64,000 nt of DNA from IMG/VR virus record IMGVR_UViG_2609459792_000007. One strand, given 5' to 3'. Positions within the stretch are counted from its first letter, which is position 1. Every line of letters begins with the position of its first letter. The notes under the pieces were generated by a model. It saw nothing but the letters and a program-made list of their open reading frames with translations. It had not been told where the DNA came from and ran no database searches. This document shows positions 3,129-61,171 of the stretch, piece by piece. The translations under genes were made by a program, and so were the position numbers. The stretch comes from a virus (lineage: Duplodnaviria > Heunggongvirae > Uroviricota > Caudoviricetes).

Positions 3129-3171
3129 CTAATACTAGAAAACAATTTGTTTAAAAAACAAAGGAAAGCAC

Positions 3172-40646: not shown

Positions 40647-40752
40647 CATATGGTGGGGGATATCCCCACCTTCTCTTTGATTTGTAAGCCTTGTTTAAAC
40701 ATATAAGATAACAACTTGTTTAAACGCACCAAAAAAGAAAAAGGAAAAACAC

Positions 40753-47849: not shown

Positions 47850-48443
47850 ATGATTGCAGCCGAAAAAATCAAACAGCGAAAGCGCGACAACTCTCTTCGT
47901 GACCTCTGGAGAACACCTGATTGGCTGTTTTCTGCCATTCAACGTTATCTTGGAGTGACATTTGATGTTGACGTTGCCTGCAACAAGGACAATGCAAAGC
48001 TGCCTAATTTCATAGGCGTTGAGCGTGATGCTTTGAAATCTGAATGGGGACAGCCAGGTACAATTGCCTTCCTCAATCCACCCTACTCCAAAATCTCCCC
48101 CTGGATTGATGCGGCTATACGTGAGCAGGCTCGCGGAGTTACAACAGTGATGCTAATTCCTCAATCCCTAGATACAAAGTGGTATGAGCGTGCAACAGAG
48201 TGTGCGAATGAGACGATTATTCTGTCTGGTGGCCGCGTAGCGTTTGTCGAGCCTGACGTCAATCTGGGTCAGGTAGAAGTAAACATCAACCCAGGTGGCA
48301 GTATGCTCGTTGTTTTTCGAGGATTCTGTCAGGACGCTGGGCACTCTATAAGCAAGATCCCTTTGGACGTCATGAAAAGTCTGGGAGGGTATGATCCTGC
48401 GAATGTGATCAGGAAAAAAAGACCATCAAAGAAGGCTGCTTAG
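47850..48443 (+). CDS. DNA N6-adenine methyltransferase (phage Dam-like)
   Basis: Catalytic motif NPPYS; 197 aa. Confidence 0.7.
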   Translation: MIAAEKIKQRKRDNSLRDLWRTPDWLFSAIQRYLGVTFDVDVACNKDNAKLPNFIGVERDALKSEWGQPGTIAFLNPPYSKISPWIDAAIREQARGVTTVMLIPQSLDTKWYERATECANETIILSGGRVAFVEPDVNLGQVEVNINPGGSMLVVFRGFCQDAGHSISKIPLDVMKSLGGYDPANVIRKKRPSKKAA

Positions 48444-48465
48444 TTTGTTCTGGCGTCTGTAATTA

Positions 48466-48522
48466 GCCTGCTTCTGTATATATAAATAACTACATATTAA
48501 TTATTAATATACGGAAGCAGGC
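48466..48522. repeat. Palindromic ~55-bp element, copy 2 (contains TATAAATA)
   Basis: gcctgcttctgtatatataaata...atatacggaagcagg; matches copy at 2216-2271 including flanking tctggcgtct. Confidence 0.6.
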
Positions 48523-48604
48523 TGTTTTGTATCAGAGACTCCAGACCTGAACATCACTACAGAATCCACTAGAACCCCTTCCCAGACGCTTTAAAATCGA
48601 TTTT

Positions 48605-48859
48605 ATGAATCACTTTAAGGAAACTAACATGTCATACCCGACTAATGTCGTTGCGCTCGTAGAGAGCGATTTTCTGGCCCAGGCCCGTGAAATGATGAAA
48701 GATCGCGAGCAGGCTTTCAACTTGTACGAATGGGCAATTAAGTGCTTGCATCTTGGGGAGCATCGCGAACTTGTTGAACAGCTTTTAGGTGAGTTGATCA
48801 ACGAGGTGTTTGCCTTGAATGTTCAACTACATGGTCGAGAAAATAATCAATCGAAATGA
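48605..48859 (+). CDS. Hypothetical small protein
   Basis: 84-aa ORF; alternative ATG at 48629. Confidence 0.35.
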   Translation: MNHFKETNMSYPTNVVALVESDFLAQAREMMKDREQAFNLYEWAIKCLHLGEHRELVEQLLGELINEVFALNVQLHGRENNQSK

Positions 48860-49443
48860 TAGATAAGTACAAACTATTCATAAAGTGAATTGTAAGTGCT
48901 AAGATCTGATAGTTTCCAGTCGTAGACTGGAGACTCGACCTGATGGGTGGGGGTAAGCGTCACTGGCGTCAGGTTTAAAAAAGCTCACTACCAGCGTAGA
49001 ACCGGTGCCGTTTAGGTGTCGGGGAAGGGGGAACCAAAGTGAGCGGAGACAAGGGTCACTTTATGATTGTCGAGTCTGGGGTGTTTCGAGAGGTTGAATC
49101 CAGTACTCCCCTTCATAAAGTGTGGGAAGATCTCGGTTCTGGGGTGCTGTCATCCATAACTTCCCAAGTCTAAGCTGGCAGTAGACTTAGGCCATAACTT
49201 TTCAGGTTATGAAACGACCAGGTTGGTGAGGGATTTTTATACTCACCTCCCTGGGAGAGTATTACCTGAAAAGACAACCTCTCACTTCGTTCGAGGTGAA
49301 CTTCACTCACTTCGTTCGTTCAGTTCAGGTTTATAAAAACCTGTTCTGGGAAGTAATTTGTTTATTTTAATAATTATTAACACGCACGCGTGTGCGCACG
49401 CGCGAGGAAAAAAATCGGCGCGGCGCTTGATTCAGGAGTTTAT

Positions 49444-50034
49444 ATGACGACGAAGACACCAGCCCGATCGCAAGAAAAAACTCGCAAAAAAGCCAAAAAC
49501 AAAACTTCTCCCCGCACCAATTCCACAACGCCTGTCGTAGAGTTCAATCCCCAGCTTAAAACCGTGAAAATCTTCAGTGATGGCTCTTGCCTTAAAAATC
49601 CGGGTGGCCCGGGCGGTTACGGTATAGTTCTCCAGTATCGTGGTGAGGAACGCGAGTTCTCAGATGGTTTTCATAGCACCACCAATAACCGCATGGAGAT
49701 GATGGGGGCACTTATCGGGCTGGAGCGTTTGAAATATCCATGCAACGTTATTTTGCACTCTGATAGCCAGTATCTGAAAAACGGCATGACACTGTGGATG
49801 AAATGGTGGAAACGCAATGGATGGATGACTTCTGACAAAAAACCGGTAAAGAATGTTGATCTGTGGAAGCGTCTGGATGAGGCCGCAAGTCGACATAATG
49901 TTCGCTGGAAGTGGGTTAAAGGCCACGCCGGGCATCGTGAAAATGAAATATGTGATCGACTCGCGAAGATCGCAGCTTTTTCCGCAGCAGATATGCCTCA
50001 CAAGAAAGATATTGGTTTTGTTTATAACAAATAG
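49444..50034 (+). CDS. Ribonuclease HI
   Basis: [36 protein letters not shown]; start at ATG 49444 with RBS aggag; basic N-terminal extension. Confidence 0.85.
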
Positions 50035-50182
50035 TAAGTAAGTCTTTACCTATCATTTTAAATCATGTATCTTATCGGCGTCAGGATGACAATGTGTCGG
50101 TAAGACACAGTTCCAGGATGGAACGAGAAAGGCGGCTGGCAATCGCCAGCCGCAACTCTTTCTGACACTGGATGGAGTCCAC

Positions 50183-50677
50183 ATGGCACGTCAAACCTAT
50201 TTCACTTCTGCAACTAAACGTCCTCGTTCACTACGTCAAATTTTGGCCGAATTATTTAGCGGTCGTGTTCTGTCACGTCTTGATGAACTAGAGACTGCCG
50301 TTCGGTTGCTGAATGAACGTTTAGATAAGCAAGCGTCAGTTGTTGCGAACGTGGGGGCGATTGTTACCTCTGGTTCTTCACGCGAAGCGAAAAGTACACG
50401 GCCTTTAGTGAAGGAGAAAAACAACAAGGACAGTTCGAATGGAAAATTTTCAAAGAAAGAGGCTGAAACCAATGGCCTACGTTCTCATTATAGTTTCACT
50501 GGCGACGATAGCCGTTCCAGCCGGCCAGAGCCTTTTGATGCCGGGTTCATCCATCACCACACCTCCGTCGACGACAATTACCACCACTCCAGTAGAGCGT
50601 CCTGTCACTCTGGATGGGATGACGGTGGATGCGATACCTCAAGTTCATCCAGTTACTCAGGATCATGCTGTGACTAA
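50183..50677 (+). CDS. Hypothetical protein (low-complexity C-terminus; extent uncertain)
   Basis: ORF overlaps alternative-frame membrane ORF 50439-50690; only one frame is likely genuine over the shared stretch. Confidence 0.25.
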   Translation: MARQTYFTSATKRPRSLRQILAELFSGRVLSRLDELETAVRLLNERLDKQASVVANVGAIVTSGSSREAKSTRPLVKEKNNKDSSNGKFSKKEAETNGLRSHYSFTGDDSRSSRPEPFDAGFIHHHTSVDDNYHHSSRASCHSGWDDGGCDTSSSSSYSGSCCD

Positions 50678-50690
50678 GGCGGTTGTATGA
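50439..50690 (+). CDS. Putative small membrane protein (alternative frame)
   Basis: N-terminal TM segment AYVLIIVSLATIAVPA, Thr/Pro-rich tail; overlaps 50183 ORF. Confidence 0.3.
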   Translation: MENFQRKRLKPMAYVLIIVSLATIAVPAGQSLLMPGSSITTPPSTTITTTPVERPVTLDGMTVDAIPQVHPVTQDHAVTKAVV

Positions 50691-50884
50691 ACTGGTTTTC
50701 AAATCACTTTGGAAAAACTTGGCTGGCGATTCTGGCTTTCATAGCTCTCATGGCCGCCGGTTGGGTATCGAACATTGTAAAACTCGTTTGCTCTGGTGAT
50801 CTCCAGTTTCAGGCTGGTATGACCTTGGCTCGTGTTGTTGGGATTTTTGTTTTTCCAGTCGGTTCGGTACTTGGTTATTTCTGA
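50687..50884 (+). CDS. Small two-TM membrane protein
   Basis: 65 aa; hydrophobic segments WLAILAFIALMAAGW and VVGIFVFPVGSVLGYF. Confidence 0.4.
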   Translation: MNWFSNHFGKTWLAILAFIALMAAGWVSNIVKLVCSGDLQFQAGMTLARVVGIFVFPVGSVLGYF

Positions 50885-50977
50885 CGGTTGTTAGTGCATA
50901 TGCATTGACCGTCTTTTCGTAAGCAATTCATGTAACTAGAAAACAGCTTGTTTTAACAAATAACAAAAGGAAAGCAC

Positions 50978-51403
50978 ATGTTAGGTTTATTCAAAAAGAA
51001 AACTCGTAAAGCTGTTATCGAGGTCAAAAAAATGGAGAACCGAGATGCGGTTGAAGCCACCGTGTGGGGCGCGTACATGATCTCCTATGCCGATGGCACA
51101 TGCGACGCAAAGGAAATTTCCATTCTTGAGAAAACAATTGCAGCTCTGCCTGCGTTTTCTCCGTTTGCTGGTGAGATTGCCCAAATGAGCGCCAATATCC
51201 GTGCTCAATACGAAGCCTCACCGCGCCGCGCTAATGCCCAGGCTTTACGTGAGCTGGCTGATGTGGCCGGGACTAATGATGCAGTAGATGTACTGTGTCT
51301 GTGCCTTGATATTGCCGACCAAGACGGTATTGGCGAACAAGAAGAGCTGGCCCTGAAAAAGATCGCACAGGCGCTTCAGTTGTCACTGGATGCTTATCTC
51401 TAA
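50978..51403 (+). CDS. TerB-like domain protein
   Basis: 141 aa; ADG..D..E...L..A.. pattern and C-terminal DQDGIGEQEELALKKIA typical of TerB-like folds; assignment from motif only. Confidence 0.45.
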   Translation: MLGLFKKKTRKAVIEVKKMENRDAVEATVWGAYMISYADGTCDAKEISILEKTIAALPAFSPFAGEIAQMSANIRAQYEASPRRANAQALRELADVAGTNDAVDVLCLCLDIADQDGIGEQEELALKKIAQALQLSLDAYL

Positions 51404-51561
51404 TGCTTGAGAGATTCCGGCTTGTGACCGTCATTGCTCTTCTGGTGATGGCGGTGTTGGTGGATTTTACGGGAAAGATGATGTCTGTCATTTCTGATGG
51501 CGTCCTCATTGGTCTGGCGATCTACTTCGCTTATCCGCTAGTCCGTAAAGCAACGTGTTAA
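51403..51561 (+). CDS. Small membrane protein
   Basis: 52-aa ORF below track cutoff; overlaps TerB-like stop (TAATG); followed by hairpin gggccaaatggccc. Confidence 0.35.
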   Translation: MLERFRLVTVIALLVMAVLVDFTGKMMSVISDGVLIGLAIYFAYPLVRKATC

Positions 51562-51700
51562 TGACAAGGGCCAAATGGCCCTTGTGTTTCGTTGACCGAA
51601 ATAGAGAGTTTGCACCTTTACGTTTAGCTTGCTCCCCTTTTATGCCACATCACAATAAAGCCAATAAGAAAACAACTTGTTTAAGCATTAGGAAAAACAC

Positions 51701-52270
51701 ATGTGCAAGAAATGCAAAGCGATAGCTGATGAACAAAACGCCTTATTCGAAGAAATGGATGCTAATGAACTGGTCAAAATGTTAGCCATTCTTCGAGGAA
51801 TAGAAGACGTTTCCATATTTGAGAGAGTGGTTACAGCACTTAATTTTGAGTCCACCTTTGAAGAGCCAACTCAGGTTGTAGCTTTAGCACATCATTTCGG
51901 TGTTCATTATCTTGCTGAAAAAGAGCGCGCTGATAAGTTGCAGGCGACTTTGGATATGGTGAGCGAGACTCAACGAACTGATGACACTAACAAGAGTGAG
52001 GCGATTATTGCCAGCAAAGATCGTGAAATTGCTGGGCTTAAATCCTCTCTAACGATGTTGATGTCTGCGTTCAATCTTATGTCTTCTCAGGCGGGTTATA
52101 AAATGCCATCACTAAACAGCGATGATCCGATGGCCGTTCGTCAGCTTTTGGGAGCAATGGCCGACCAACTCGACGACACAAAGAGTCGGCTTGAAGACAT
52201 GATGCGTGAGTTAAGCCATCGACATAACCTCGCAACACAGCCACACAAAGCCTTTCAAAGCTCTAATTGA
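51701..52270 (+). CDS. Hypothetical protein (N-terminal CxxC)
   Basis: 189 aa; conserved cacATG start context; terminator-like hairpin after stop. Confidence 0.45.
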   Translation: MCKKCKAIADEQNALFEEMDANELVKMLAILRGIEDVSIFERVVTALNFESTFEEPTQVVALAHHFGVHYLAEKERADKLQATLDMVSETQRTDDTNKSEAIIASKDREIAGLKSSLTMLMSAFNLMSSQAGYKMPSLNSDDPMAVRQLLGAMADQLDDTKSRLEDMMRELSHRHNLATQPHKAFQSSN

Positions 52271-52325
52271 TCTGATATGGCCGCATGATCGGCCATATTG
52301 TGTTGATAAAAAACAAGGATGAAAA

Positions 52326-52607
52326 ATGGCATACGGTACAGGGATTTACAACAATAAAGGAATTAACGTTACTGGCTTCCTTACTCCTATTTTTTTTCTT
52401 GATCGATTTACTGCGTCATCAGGCTCTAAGACGTACTCCAATCCGCCACCGGGTAAATCGCTACATGCCGTGTGGTCATTGATGCCTCTTAACAACGACA
52501 ACTACATTAATTTACCTGTTCCAACAGTTACTATTAATGGAAATACGGTTAGTTGGTCAAATTTATATACGGGGCTTGGTTCTTACATATACACATACTG
52601 GGGATAA
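52326..52607 (+). CDS. Hypothetical Asn/Ser/Thr/Tyr-rich protein (AT-rich island)
   Basis: 93-aa ORF in low-GC segment. Confidence 0.35.
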   Translation: MAYGTGIYNNKGINVTGFLTPIFFLDRFTASSGSKTYSNPPPGKSLHAVWSLMPLNNDNYINLPVPTVTINGNTVSWSNLYTGLGSYIYTYWG

Positions 52608-52609
52608 TT

Positions 52610-53224
52610 ATGTTCGGGATGTCAATTACTCAATCAGATGGAAGTTTGTGGATGAGTCCAGAATTTACTCCGCAAAATCTGATTAATAAAGGGACAATGT
52701 CTACATCTAAAGGTTCTGTTTTTCAAACATCAATCCCATCAAACAAATCATGCTTTTTCTTCATAAAAAGCAGTAATAAGGCGAACATGATGTTTATTCA
52801 TGAGCATAGTAACGGATACAATGCTCTCAGATTGCATCAGGTAAATGGTAGCCCCGGAACAATAACAGTTTATGCTTTTTCTGATATGGTGTTACCACAT
52901 TCTGGCTATGGCATTGCCATGTATAACAGCGCAGGCGCAATGGTGTATCACGGTGAGATGATGCCCCTTGATGCGAAACTTATCACTATTTCTGACCCTC
53001 AATTTACAATAGATATGGGGTATCCATGTGCGGTAATGCCTGCTATGGTTGGGGTATATAACTATAGACGAACCGATTACGACAGACCTGTCTATGTAAC
53101 AATGACAGGTGCAACTGGAAACCAAGTATATAACGGTCAATGGTATTCCGGTAATGTCACATGGGATATTAAGAAGATTTATACAAACAAAATTCTGGTG
53201 ATAAATACCTCCAAGTATGATTAG
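52610..53224 (+). CDS. Hypothetical Asn/Ser/Thr/Tyr/Gly-rich protein (AT-rich island)
   Basis: ORF starting at ATG 52610 (track start 52553 runs back into the upstream gene); low-GC codon usage. Confidence 0.4.
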   Translation: MFGMSITQSDGSLWMSPEFTPQNLINKGTMSTSKGSVFQTSIPSNKSCFFFIKSSNKANMMFIHEHSNGYNALRLHQVNGSPGTITVYAFSDMVLPHSGYGIAMYNSAGAMVYHGEMMPLDAKLITISDPQFTIDMGYPCAVMPAMVGVYNYRRTDYDRPVYVTMTGATGNQVYNGQWYSGNVTWDIKKIYTNKILVINTSKYD

Positions 53225-53327
53225 CCAATGCCTTTATTTGAAGGATTGCCTGTTTATTTCTATTTAGTACCTTTTCATTTTTGAAATAATTGCACCATTA
53301 AACAAATCACTTCTTAATGGTGCAATT

Positions 53328-55013
53328 ATGAATACAGCCCTTTCCATCATCGACGATGCCAACTCAAACACTGCTATCGACTATCGGCAGGAAATGAACG
53401 TCATCCACGAAATTGTGGCCGAGTGCGAGAAAGAGATCGCCTTCATGTATCAGGTACACGACTTCGTTTATGGCGACGAACGCCACAACATGATTAATCG
53501 CCTGCTGAGACTAAACCATCGACCAGATGAAGATCGCTCGCGTTTAAATCGAGGTTGGTTGGATAAAGTCGATCTGGAATGGGTGAAACAGAATATTTGG
53601 GCCGAGTACTGGAGGAAGGTCACGGACATGACTAACGTTTTGCTGATCATGCCAGCTTCCCGTCGAGATGAGTGGCGCGAGCAGTTTATAGAGGGCAAAC
53701 AGGAAGTCATCAAAACTGACAGAACCGGCTACCAGATGAAGGTTAAAGAGTTCGTTGGTGTACCGGAGTTCAAAGCAGAAACGGTCATACCCACGATGCT
53801 TAATTTGCTGAATGACAGGCACAAATATCTCTCTGAGCGCGTGTATGGCTTGTTTAAGGCGCTGAGTCCTGCGCACAAGACAAATAAGACAAACGGTTTC
53901 AGCGAACGTCTGATAATCGCTGACTGCATTTCTGATTTCTGGCGGGACAGCGTTAGTGTGAACTATCGCAAAGAGGACTATATCGACGATCTGCGTGTCT
54001 TGCTTCATTTCTTCGCGCACAAAGAATTTATTACCATCAACCGCACTGCTGAGGTGCTATCAGCTGCGTATCGGGCAAACGACTGCCAGACCGGTGACTG
54101 GATGAACGTCGATGGAAATCTAATGCGCGTGAAGATGTTCAAGAACGGCAACGTTCACTTTGAAATACATCCTGACGTGGCCTGGAAGTTGAATGAGGTG
54201 CTGGCTTACAGTATGCCTGCTGCAATCCCCGCGCCATGTCGCACCGCGCCAAAAACACGGGCACCAAAGCAGTTCGGTTTAATCCAGAAGACGATCTCCG
54301 TGCCGGTTCGCACTGCGCTTCGTGACGGGCGATTGAGCAAAGACAAAGGCGTATGGTACTTCTCTGATTCAGCTCTCCAGAAGTCGCAGGTGGAAGAGCT
54401 TGAGCGCACACTGAGCTTCATTGGCGGCGTGCAGGAGAAAAAGCACTGGCAGTTCCCGTATGACATCGACCATACGCTAAATACGATTGTGGCTACCGGT
54501 TTAATACCGGATACAAAATCACACCAGTTCTACCCTACCCCACGCTTGATTGCTGAGTACGTTGCCAGAGCCACTGAATTGAAGCCTGGTGAGAAGCTGC
54601 TGGAGCCTCAAGCCGGACGTGGGGATCTTCTGGCCTATATTAACGCCGATCTGGAAGATGTTACCTGCATAGAAATCGCATCTCTCTTCGCTGATATCCT
54701 GCGTGGAAAAGGGTATACGAACACGATTTGCTGCGACTTCATAAAGTGGTCTGAGGACAACGCAGGTTATCAGTTCGACAAAATCGTTATGAACCCGCCG
54801 TACTCGCTTGGTCGTCATAAAGAGCACACGCTGGCTGCGCTGGGGCATCTGAAAGTCGGCGGGCGTCTTGTAGCAGTATTGCCGGGCACTGCGCCAATAC
54901 TGGACTGGATGACGATGGATAATTACGTTTATGCCAGAGGGAAGTCGTTTACCAACGAGTTTGAAGACACAGGGATCACAGTCAGCGTATACGTTTTCAA
55001 ACGCGTTAAATGA
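53328..55013 (+). CDS. DNA methyltransferase, NPPY-type, with large N-terminal domain of unknown function
   Basis: C-terminal AdoMet motif LEPQAGRGDL followed by IVMNPPYS; ~400-aa N-terminal region unassigned. Confidence 0.6.
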   Translation: MNTALSIIDDANSNTAIDYRQEMNVIHEIVAECEKEIAFMYQVHDFVYGDERHNMINRLLRLNHRPDEDRSRLNRGWLDKVDLEWVKQNIWAEYWRKVTDMTNVLLIMPASRRDEWREQFIEGKQEVIKTDRTGYQMKVKEFVGVPEFKAETVIPTMLNLLNDRHKYLSERVYGLFKALSPAHKTNKTNGFSERLIIADCISDFWRDSVSVNYRKEDYIDDLRVLLHFFAHKEFITINRTAEVLSAAYRANDCQTGDWMNVDGNLMRVKMFKNGNVHFEIHPDVAWKLNEVLAYSMPAAIPAPCRTAPKTRAPKQFGLIQKTISVPVRTALRDGRLSKDKGVWYFSDSALQKSQVEELERTLSFIGGVQEKKHWQFPYDIDHTLNTIVATGLIPDTKSHQFYPTPRLIAEYVARATELKPGEKLLEPQAGRGDLLAYINADLEDVTCIEIASLFADILRGKGYTNTICCDFIKWSEDNAGYQFDKIVMNPPYSLGRHKEHTLAALGHLKVGGRLVAVLPGTAPILDWMTMDNYVYARGKSFTNEFEDTGITVSVYVFKRVK

Positions 55014-61035: not shown

Positions 61036-61171
61036 GCATCCCTTCTCCATTAAGGCCACTAGTTGTGGCCTTAAACAATTTGTTTTCTACCTTTTCTTGT
61101 TCGAGAAAATAACGTTCCTTTGTCTGGTGCTATGTACCGAACAGTTGCACTGAGTGAGCTTCTTTCATGTA

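Follow-up and report, generated by a model that had tools for sequence, protein, structure and literature searches.

The closest described relatives of the locus analysed here are the tciABC genes of phage P1, which proved non-essential in a CRISPR interference screen (PMC10695390) and form one of eight highly variable regions among P1-like phage-plasmids (PMC9603915). In the pSLy3 subgroup, resistance-gene insertions adjoin genes annotated as 'DUF3927' and 'tellurite/colicin resistance' (PMC9600943). The ter operons, to which the first of these genes is related through the TerB family, have been associated with phage inhibition, colicin resistance and tellurite resistance (PMC8123226), and a TerC-TerB complex has been reported as their central unit (PMC12054061). 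Iyer et al. propose that phage-borne Ter components or TerB serve in competition with superinfecting phages (PMC7824862). Here we examine positions 50183-51561 of a 64,000-nucleotide (nt) stretch of viral DNA, IMG/VR record IMGVR_UViG_2609459792_000007 (the window, meaning the whole stretch), where five open reading frames (ORFs) lie on the + strand: ORF164, ORF83 and ORF65, named for their lengths in amino acids (aa), followed by homologues of P1 tciA and tciB.

The window is an SSU5/pHCM2-type phage-plasmid of Escherichia coli. Against ~109-kb E. coli plasmids the identity of the region is 99.7%, and against Escherichia phage Cyrano it is 97%. Of 5,426 complete E. coli genomes, 215 (~4%) carry the locus, nearly always on a plasmid, and it is found too on hundreds of Klebsiella, Enterobacter and Salmonella plasmids. 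A sequence-only reading had listed the five ORFs as one cluster, and all five are in the ORF list at the positions in Table 1. Comparison with relatives shows, at the level of sequence, that the region consists of two independent units, unit 1 spanning 50183-50884 and unit 2 spanning ~50890-51615. We consider it probable that unit 1 belongs to the phage-plasmid backbone and contains a selected overlapping gene, ORF83, and that unit 2 is an exchangeable tciAB cassette of the P1 type. The TerB part of this picture is ordinary, already known and annotated. ORF83 appears to be a modest but real addition, of a kind (out-of-frame overlapping phage genes) that is already known.

A selected gene in the +1 frame of ORF164

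ORF164, which we call frame 0, has a basic N-terminus, a long helix at residues 17-69 and then a tail rich in Ser, Asp, Gly, His and Cys (residues ~67-164). The AlphaFold confidence score (predicted local distance difference test, pLDDT) reaches 92 in the helix and is ~42 in the tail, which has no confident structure, and a search of ORF164 against PDB gave no match. The overlap with ORF83, 239 nt long, falls wholly within this tail. The predicted ORF83 product has a charged N-terminus, MENFQRKRLKP, and a single hydrophobic segment at residues 12-28 that ends in AVPAGQ and would be either a cleavable signal peptide or a membrane anchor. Beyond this segment lie a Thr/Pro-rich stretch and a conserved LDGM..D.I block.

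We compared ORF83 across 77 related loci in eight lineages, down to ~40% protein identity. It is intact in 75 of them, the two exceptions carrying frameshifts, and in the translated relatives it stays open in every lineage across indels, with the same ATG and the same end point. Its stop codon always falls 13 nt past that of frame 0, in an ATGA or GTGA shared with the next start. A purine-rich Shine-Dalgarno-like element (AGGA, GGAGA or GGGAA) stands 6-9 nt 5' of the conserved ATG in all eight lineages; Met-12 is not conserved, and Met-1 is therefore the likely start. An open +1 frame alone is weak evidence of coding, because the frame-0 tail has few hydrophobic codons and few codons able to create +1 stops: when the codons of the frame-0 protein were resampled synonymously, the +1 frame came out open with P = 0.11-0.74 per lineage (product 0.01). 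In the converse resampling, with the +1 protein fixed, frame 0 was open at only P = 0.05-0.13 per lineage.

The pattern of substitutions is more telling. The minimum numbers of changes at the three frame-0 codon positions across the eight lineages are 74, 55 and 133 in the N-terminal, non-overlapping part of ORF164, which has normal coding periodicity, and 79, 56 and 49 in the overlap (chi-square p = 2e-6), and 72 of 121 frame-0 four-fold sites differ in the N-terminal part versus 21 of 78 in the overlap (p = 1e-5); both p-values overstate independence, since the eight lineages share ancestry. Of the frame-0 third positions, 8 of 80 are invariant in the N-terminal part and 33 of 68 in the overlap. 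In an OLGenie-style classification, where each change is scored by its effect in both frames, the rate at sites synonymous in frame 0 and nonsynonymous in +1 (pSN) is 0.23 in the overlap versus 0.57 outside (ratio 0.41, confidence interval (CI) 0.26-0.57), and frame-0 synonymous sites are thus 2.4 times slower in the overlap than in the N-terminal part. Synonymous differences (pS) exceed nonsynonymous ones (pN) in the +1 frame in 10 of 10 pairs, while the +2 control frame is flat. As the periodicity follows the phase of +1, a frame-blind constraint such as RNA structure is excluded. One locus (L071) offers a single-site illustration, in which the frame-0 motif SGWD has become SGWN by a substitution that is silent in +1, where LDGM stays.

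Taken over the related loci, these substitutions show that ORF83 is a gene under purifying selection and that it imposes the main constraint on the shared nucleotides. The sequence-only reading had flagged the dual-frame overlap as needing resolution; the overlap is more than a product of chance, and it is the substitution pattern that decides the matter, with the +1 frame selected. The RefSeq and GenBank genome annotations examined call only the 164-aa frame here and miss ORF83, although a few database entries do call it. It is already present in PHROGs as a family of unknown function (Table 1), and our literature search found no paper discussing that ORF.

The third member of unit 1, ORF65, begins 10 nt past the frame-0 stop, its ATG overlapping the ORF83 TGA as ATGA. 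It carries the conserved motif GGW..N..KL...GDL....G.TLARVVG.F..P.G..LG.F and is under purifying selection, with pN below pS in 21 of 21 pairs (mean 0.43). In a hydropathy scan, ORF65 and TciB each have two transmembrane (TM)-like segments, ORF83 has one, and ORF164 and TciA have none. Thus the 65-aa and 52-aa proteins flanking the TerB-like one are membrane-type, as had been supposed, and selection acts on both. In one lineage (L067), ORF65 has been lost and ORF83 kept. Homologues of ORF164 and ORF83 are confined to the SSU5/pHCM2-type phage-plasmid group.

Several variants of the overlap deserve mention in their own right. With a 1-nt indel at ~50529-50535, some variants (proteins P0012, P0015 and P0018; loci L062 and L083) begin with ~117 residues of ORF164 and continue in the +1 frame, for products of 168 aa. 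The P0015 fusion occurs on five contigs, and such variants are either tolerated mutations or homopolymer sequencing errors. Two mosaic ORF164 variants (P0008 and P0013) join an N-terminal half of the type found in the plasmid pYLPI6a to a C-terminal half of the window type. Their breakpoint lies near the start of the overlap (~50440), as if the two parts were separate recombination modules.

The tciA-tciB cassette and its slot

TciA was described in the sequence-only reading as TerB-like, and both profile and fold bear this out. It scores 29.3 bits against the Pfam TerB profile PF05099 (cut-off 24.4) over residues 33-136, its homologues carry precomputed PF05099 assignments, and its predicted model is all-helical and matches the solved TerB-family structures 2H5N and 2OU3 (COG3793). 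Against PDB chains, neither the single sequence nor a 22-sequence profile matched a TerB entry; fold comparison alone worked. TciA is 85.4% identical to P1 TciA over 123 aa (residues 1-123, E = 1e-65) and is counted as its orthologue. Among 22 homologues, two paired acidic D-G...D/E motifs (YADGTCDAKE and DIADQDGIGEQEE) vary little or not at all, with D39, E46, D111, D114 and G117 invariant and G40, D43, D116, G119 and E122 nearly so. The acidic residues fall in two pseudo-repeats and are putatively metal- or ligand-binding.

TciB matches DUF3927 (PF13064) with 47.4 bits (cut-off 25) and is 39% identical to P1 TciB. The tciB ATG shares one base with the tciA TAA (ctcTAATGctt), so that the 52-aa ORF does overlap the stop of the TerB gene as claimed, and the TAATG junction suggests translational coupling of tciB to tciA. 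In PHROGs, TciA is labelled 'tellurite resistance' and TciB 'TciB-like', and the authors of the Cyrano annotation called the pair 'P1 TciA-like' and 'P1 TciB-like'. A tblastn search found TciB-like ORFs in 38 phage records from several phage types. Wherever the coordinates of both genes are listed (P1, P7, D6, FSL SP-076, FSL SP-058, UTK0002, Shigella B2 and SSU5-like phages), the TciB-like ORF lies directly 3' of the TerB-like gene; this includes ~72-kb Salmonella/Shigella phages, and the pair is found too in ~40-kb E. coli and Klebsiella phages. By this comparison, phages of unrelated types share TerB plus DUF3927 as a conserved pair of genes. Purifying selection acts on both, with pN/pS of ~0.1 for TciA and 0.4-0.6 for TciB. 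P1 TciC, searched by tblastn against the whole window, gave chance matches only (E at least 4.6), and tciB runs straight into the terminator.

Two further observations concern the junction of the pair. A P1-type entry outside the window (P0125) is a single 196-aa protein in which TciA and TciB are fused and both PF05099 and PF13064 are present; this is consistent with a functional link, and it may be an error at the TAATG junction. Between a Klebsiella locus (L005) and a Cronobacter locus (L006), pS is 0.63 for tciA and 0.00 for tciB, and we therefore place a recombination breakpoint at or near the tciA/tciB junction.

The cassette occupies a position whose content changes from relative to relative. 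In pHCM2 of Salmonella Typhi, in SSU5 and in an Enterobacter kobei plasmid, the 164-aa and ~62-aa ORFs are kept, together with ORF83, and a Rha/antirepressor gene replaces tciAB. In pYLPI6a, unit 1 is kept with a restriction endonuclease (REase) at the tciAB position, and Citrobacter and K. pneumoniae relatives have a large (~690-aa) minus-strand gene in the slot. Viral and genome collections yielded 72 further loci, in which the slot is filled by tciAB, Rha, REase, the large minus-strand gene or combinations of these (including tciAB plus Rha and tciAB plus REase) or is empty, and its content is largely independent of backbone lineage. Nucleotide homology to a tciAB-carrying Klebsiella relative begins at 50927, and homology to Rha-carrying relatives resumes at ~51615. 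From the replacement or absence of tciAB and from these breakpoints, it follows that tciAB is exchangeable cargo of a hotspot and that ORF65 belongs to the backbone unit. The proposal of one five-ORF cluster does not survive this comparison, as relatives without the TerB gene keep the 164-, 83- and 65-aa ORFs.

The spacer between the units is 93 nt long and holds a weak hairpin and a promoter/operator-like module that includes a 13-nt palindrome. This palindrome, AAACANNTTGTTT, occurs at six sites in the window versus 0.53 expected. At five of them it abuts a -10-like TATAAG or TACTAG, 20-45 nt 5' of the ATG of a + strand gene, and these five share a near-identical leader and Shine-Dalgarno, AAAGGAAA.CAC-ATG. 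The sixth, at 61073, is ~120 nt 5' of the next listed + strand ORF and is without the shared leader. In all SSU5-type relatives, the palindrome stands 5' of the slot cargo, of the homologue of the 189-aa ORF (ORF189) and of the DUF4942 methylase; it was not found at the P1 tci locus. The palindrome probably serves the phage-plasmid as an operator or promoter module; the repeated modules may act as recombination linkers for cassette exchange.

Table 1. Features of the two units and their borders in the window, with palindrome sites elsewhere
Feature	Position	Strand	Description
GC-rich hairpin	50132-50153	+	9 bp (8 G-C), T-containing tail; between rnhA and ORF164; upstream limit of unit 1
ORF164	50183-50677	+	164 aa, frame 0; phrog_10411 (E = 7e-76)
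Shine-Dalgarno-like element	50426-50430	+	AAGGA, 8 nt 5' of the ORF83 ATG
ORF83	50439-50690	+	83 aa, +1 frame relative to ORF164; phrog_15659 (E = 2e-48)
Peptide of the predicted ORF83 product			PVTLDGMTVDAIPQVHPVTQDHAVTK
ORF65	50687-50884	+	65 aa, two-TM; phrog_6006 (E = 3e-27)
Weak hairpin	50890-50909	+	T-rich tail; 3' of ORF65; left edge of slot
Promoter/operator-like module	50930-50977	+	-10-like TAACTAGA, then leader and Shine-Dalgarno AAAGGAAAGCAC before the tciA ATG
Palindrome	50941-50953	+	AAACAGCTTGTTT, abutting the -10-like hexamer; upstream of tciA
tciA	50978-51403	+	141 aa, soluble acidic TerB-fold protein; PF05099
tciB	51403-51561	+	52 aa, two-TM hairpin protein; DUF3927 PF13064, phrog_1470 'TciB-like'
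Intrinsic terminator of cassette	51564-51595	+	ACAAGGGCC-AAAT-GGCCCTTGT, then GTTTCGTT; directly 3' of tciB
Palindrome copy	51670-51682	+	AAACAACTTGTTT; upstream of the 189-aa backbone ORF; right edge of slot
Palindrome sites	210-222, 3140-3152, 40709-40721, 50941-50953, 51670-51682, 61073-61085		AAACANNTTGTTT

On its 5' side, the region is neighboured by genes for an N6-adenine methylase and an RNase H, and on its 3' side by the 189-aa ORF, two membrane-type 'moron' ORFs and a DUF4942 methyltransferase. The hairpin between the RNase H gene and ORF164 scores as terminator-like on both strands and could be a terminator, a processing site or a protein-binding site. The start of the RNase H gene (49390-50034 in the window) is annotated inconsistently: RefSeq has a 648-nt gene from GTG, and Cyrano and PhiR41_1 have a 594-nt gene; in the long form, the Pfam RNase_H domain runs from residue 58. 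The two moron-type ORFs, at 52326-52607 (phrog_557, 'outer membrane protein') and 52553-53224 (phrog_425, 'membrane associated protein'), belong to PHROGs categories that are both of the moron type. The mechanical ORF list has the second start inside the first ORF, an overlap of 55 nt that disappears with the later second start used by RefSeq. NCBIfam gave no match for any of the five proteins, and Rfam gave nothing at E <= 0.1 over 48000-53500.

Weighing the readings and a proposed mechanism

Besides the shared ancestry of the lineages, several results weigh against the picture of a selected ORF83 in the backbone and a functional tciAB cassette beside it. The pNN/pNS ratio, which is 0.57 (CI 0.44-0.71) in +1 and 1.01 in the +2 control, has a baseline bias, as it is 0.70 in the N-terminal part of ORF164, where there is no +1 gene. 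For this reason pNN/pNS was rejected as sole evidence for ORF83, and the case rests mainly on the slowdown at SN sites and the phase of the periodicity. A search for a stand-alone ORF83 homologue returned matches that were all the same locus, the most distant (P0043) being a frame-scrambled assembly. In the overlap, pNN/pSN is 1.05 (CI 0.75-1.58), which indicates no amino-acid constraint of frame 0's own. A scan of 49900-51800 with the sigma-70 consensus gave no + strand promoter. The ter partners terC, terD, terE, terZ and terA were absent among the 12-15 annotated neighbours in the local neighbourhood, and the PADLOC-DB defence models gave no match at E <= 0.1 for ORF164, ORF83, ORF65, TciA or TciB. 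The function we propose for tciAB is drawn entirely by analogy.

How the overlap itself should be read admits three other accounts. The most substantial is that only the +1 gene matters there, with the ORF164 tail a passive extension and the N-terminal helix its functional part. The pNN/pSN value is what +1-only selection would give, the tail is predicted at low pLDDT, the frame-0 motifs NGLRS and SGWD share bases with the conserved +1 motifs MAY and LDGM, and even the position of the frame-0 stop is dictated by +1 residues T-K/E. We nevertheless regard this as rather unlikely, since about two frame-0 stops per lineage would be expected given the +1 protein and none is found in the 75 intact loci, and since +1-synonymous sites are slightly slower than single-coding synonymous sites (ratio 0.76, CI 0.59-0.95). 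The pNN/pSN ratio does not demonstrate a dual function of the overlap; frame 0 appears to be kept open with little amino-acid constraint of its own. Far less credible is the opposite account, in which ORF164 is the sole gene and ORF83 a non-coding consequence of a frame-0 tail poor in hydrophobic residues and low in complexity. The +1 frame is indeed often open by chance given the frame-0 protein, and the deposited annotations examined call frame 0 alone, but frame-0 synonymous sites slow 2.4-fold in the overlap with third positions the most conserved, the periodicity is phased with +1 and not +2, and the ATG, Shine-Dalgarno, ATGA junction and hydrophobic anchor segment are all conserved. Programmed ribosomal frameshifting, which would join the N-terminal part of ORF164 to the +1 frame in a 168-aa fusion, is the least probable of all. 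Three proteins (P0012, P0015 and P0018) and one locus (L062) are such fusions, with one T lost from CCTTTTG, but 1-nt deletions or homopolymer sequencing errors explain them, a conserved ATG and Shine-Dalgarno belong to the +1 ORF itself, and the T-run is not conserved in other lineages; on this last ground, frameshifting at CCTTTTG was rejected.

Two wider alternatives concern what the genes do together. An auxiliary lysis device made of ORF164, ORF83 and ORF65, holin- or spanin-like in the manner of embedded Rz/Rz1, is suggested by an out-of-frame overlapping pair followed by a small two-TM protein, and by a faint match of ORF65 to Phage_holin_4_1 (E = 0.036, 14.6 bits). That match is below the gathering cut-off of 22.2 bits, however, ORF164 is without a TM segment, the window's ORF83 has no Cys and hence no lipobox, and in the related phage Cyrano the annotated cassette of holin, endolysin, Rz and Rz1 is ~50 kb away. 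These features led us to reject a lysis-cassette reading of unit 1, to which we give only a slim chance. Slimmer by a shade is the chance that all five ORFs form one membrane-associated stress or exclusion module, as the sequence-only reading had ventured. The genes are adjacent on the same strand, three of the five products are membrane-type, and the five ORFs always co-occur in the window's lineage. Elsewhere, the upstream triad persists where unrelated genes have taken the place of tciAB or where tciAB is missing, and tciAB occurs without the triad in P1, P7, D6, the ~72-kb Salmonella/Shigella phages and the ~40-kb E. coli/Klebsiella phages; moreover, a hairpin and a separate promoter-like module stand between the units.

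Returning to the two-unit picture, we propose a model in which unit 1 is a compact three-gene arrangement, with ORF83 read in +1 over the last 239 nt of the ORF164 tail. ORF83 would contribute an N-terminal signal or anchor segment and a Thr/Pro-rich extracytoplasmic part, and the ATGA junction should couple translation of ORF65 to that of ORF83. The two proteins would thus be made together and act in the cell envelope, with ORF164 contributing its N-terminal helix. We lean towards an envelope-directed role for unit 1, for example exclusion or envelope control in the plasmid state, because of its backbone conservation and membrane targeting. Unit 2 would be a 'moron', with tciA and tciB between a promoter/operator palindrome of the backbone type and an intrinsic terminator, and so plugged into the backbone regulon. 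There is perhaps a little less than an even chance that TciA, as a cytoplasmic TerB-fold protein that binds a ligand or metal, is held or relayed at the inner membrane by TciB, in the way reported for TerB and TerC in ter operons. In such a scheme, tciAB would give the carrier cell accessory protection against envelope-directed insults, such as colicins, superinfecting phages and toxic ions, and would not be needed for phage growth. A 'stress or exclusion' role for tciAB, as first suggested for the whole cluster, is plausible by likeness to the ter operons.

It is tempting to speculate that ORF164 is mainly a carrier, that ORF83 is the more strongly selected of the two, and that ORF83 with its coupled ORF65 is an unrecognised conserved envelope module, possibly for superinfection exclusion or envelope control in the plasmid state, although we hold this doubtful as a whole. 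SSU5/pHCM2-type phage-plasmids are common in clinical Enterobacteriaceae, and a conserved gene under stronger constraint than the frame it overlaps is missing from the annotations examined, which makes for a concrete correction. ORF83 also offers a clean, testable overlapping gene in a tail without confident predicted structure. The separation of backbone from cargo exposes a small hotspot, bordered by the repeated palindromic modules, at which tciAB, antirepressor, restriction and other genes are exchanged, and the recognition of TerB plus DUF3927 as a two-gene unit makes the long-unexplained 'tci' function directly approachable.

Comparison with described systems

The likeness of unit 2 to P1 tciABC is close. 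TciA is 141 aa long in both and 85% identical, a DUF3927 two-TM TciB starts on the tciA stop in both, and in both the genes are non-essential or variable accessory cargo of a phage-plasmid (PMC10695390, PMC9603915). In contrast to P1, the window's cassette is without tciC, which in P1 encodes a 35-aa single-TM protein, and TciB identity is just 39%. The contexts also differ, as the P1 genes lie between upl and trnI/ban and those of the window in the slot between ORF65 and the 189-aa ORF, where the upstream palindromic module of the SSU5 backbone, absent in P1, is found.

With the TerB of ter operons (terZABCDEF), TciA shares a passing score against the TerB profile, the all-helical fold and the paired acidic motifs, and the gene for a membrane partner is adjacent to its own. 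Unlike the ter operons, however, tciAB is without terC, terD, terE, terZ and terA as neighbours, and its membrane partner is a 52-aa DUF3927 hairpin and not the multi-pass TerC. TciA also differs from solved TerB entries in having no sequence-level match to any of them.

Unit 1 recalls lambda Rz/Rz1, in that a second gene lies in the +1 frame within the 3' half of a phage gene and its product is Pro/Thr-rich and envelope-targeted, the targeting of ORF83 being predicted. The differences are that ORF164, the outer gene, has no TM domain, that ORF83, the inner one, has no lipobox, and that the pair lies outside a lysis cassette. ORF83 further extends 13 nt past the stop of the outer gene, and its own stop overlaps the start of a third gene, a junction at which coupling is predicted.

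Exchangeable cargo of this sort is familiar from the morons of lambdoid phages, and promoter-stem-loop repeats in T4-type phages act as mobile regulatory cassettes of hyperplastic regions. Like a moron, unit 2 consists of a promoter-like element, genes and a terminator inserted between backbone genes, and, as with the mobile regulatory cassettes, repeated regulatory modules flank the exchangeable cargo. What sets the slot apart from these known morons and cassettes is the form of the repeat, a 13-nt palindrome that abuts a -10-like hexamer and comes with a shared leader and Shine-Dalgarno.

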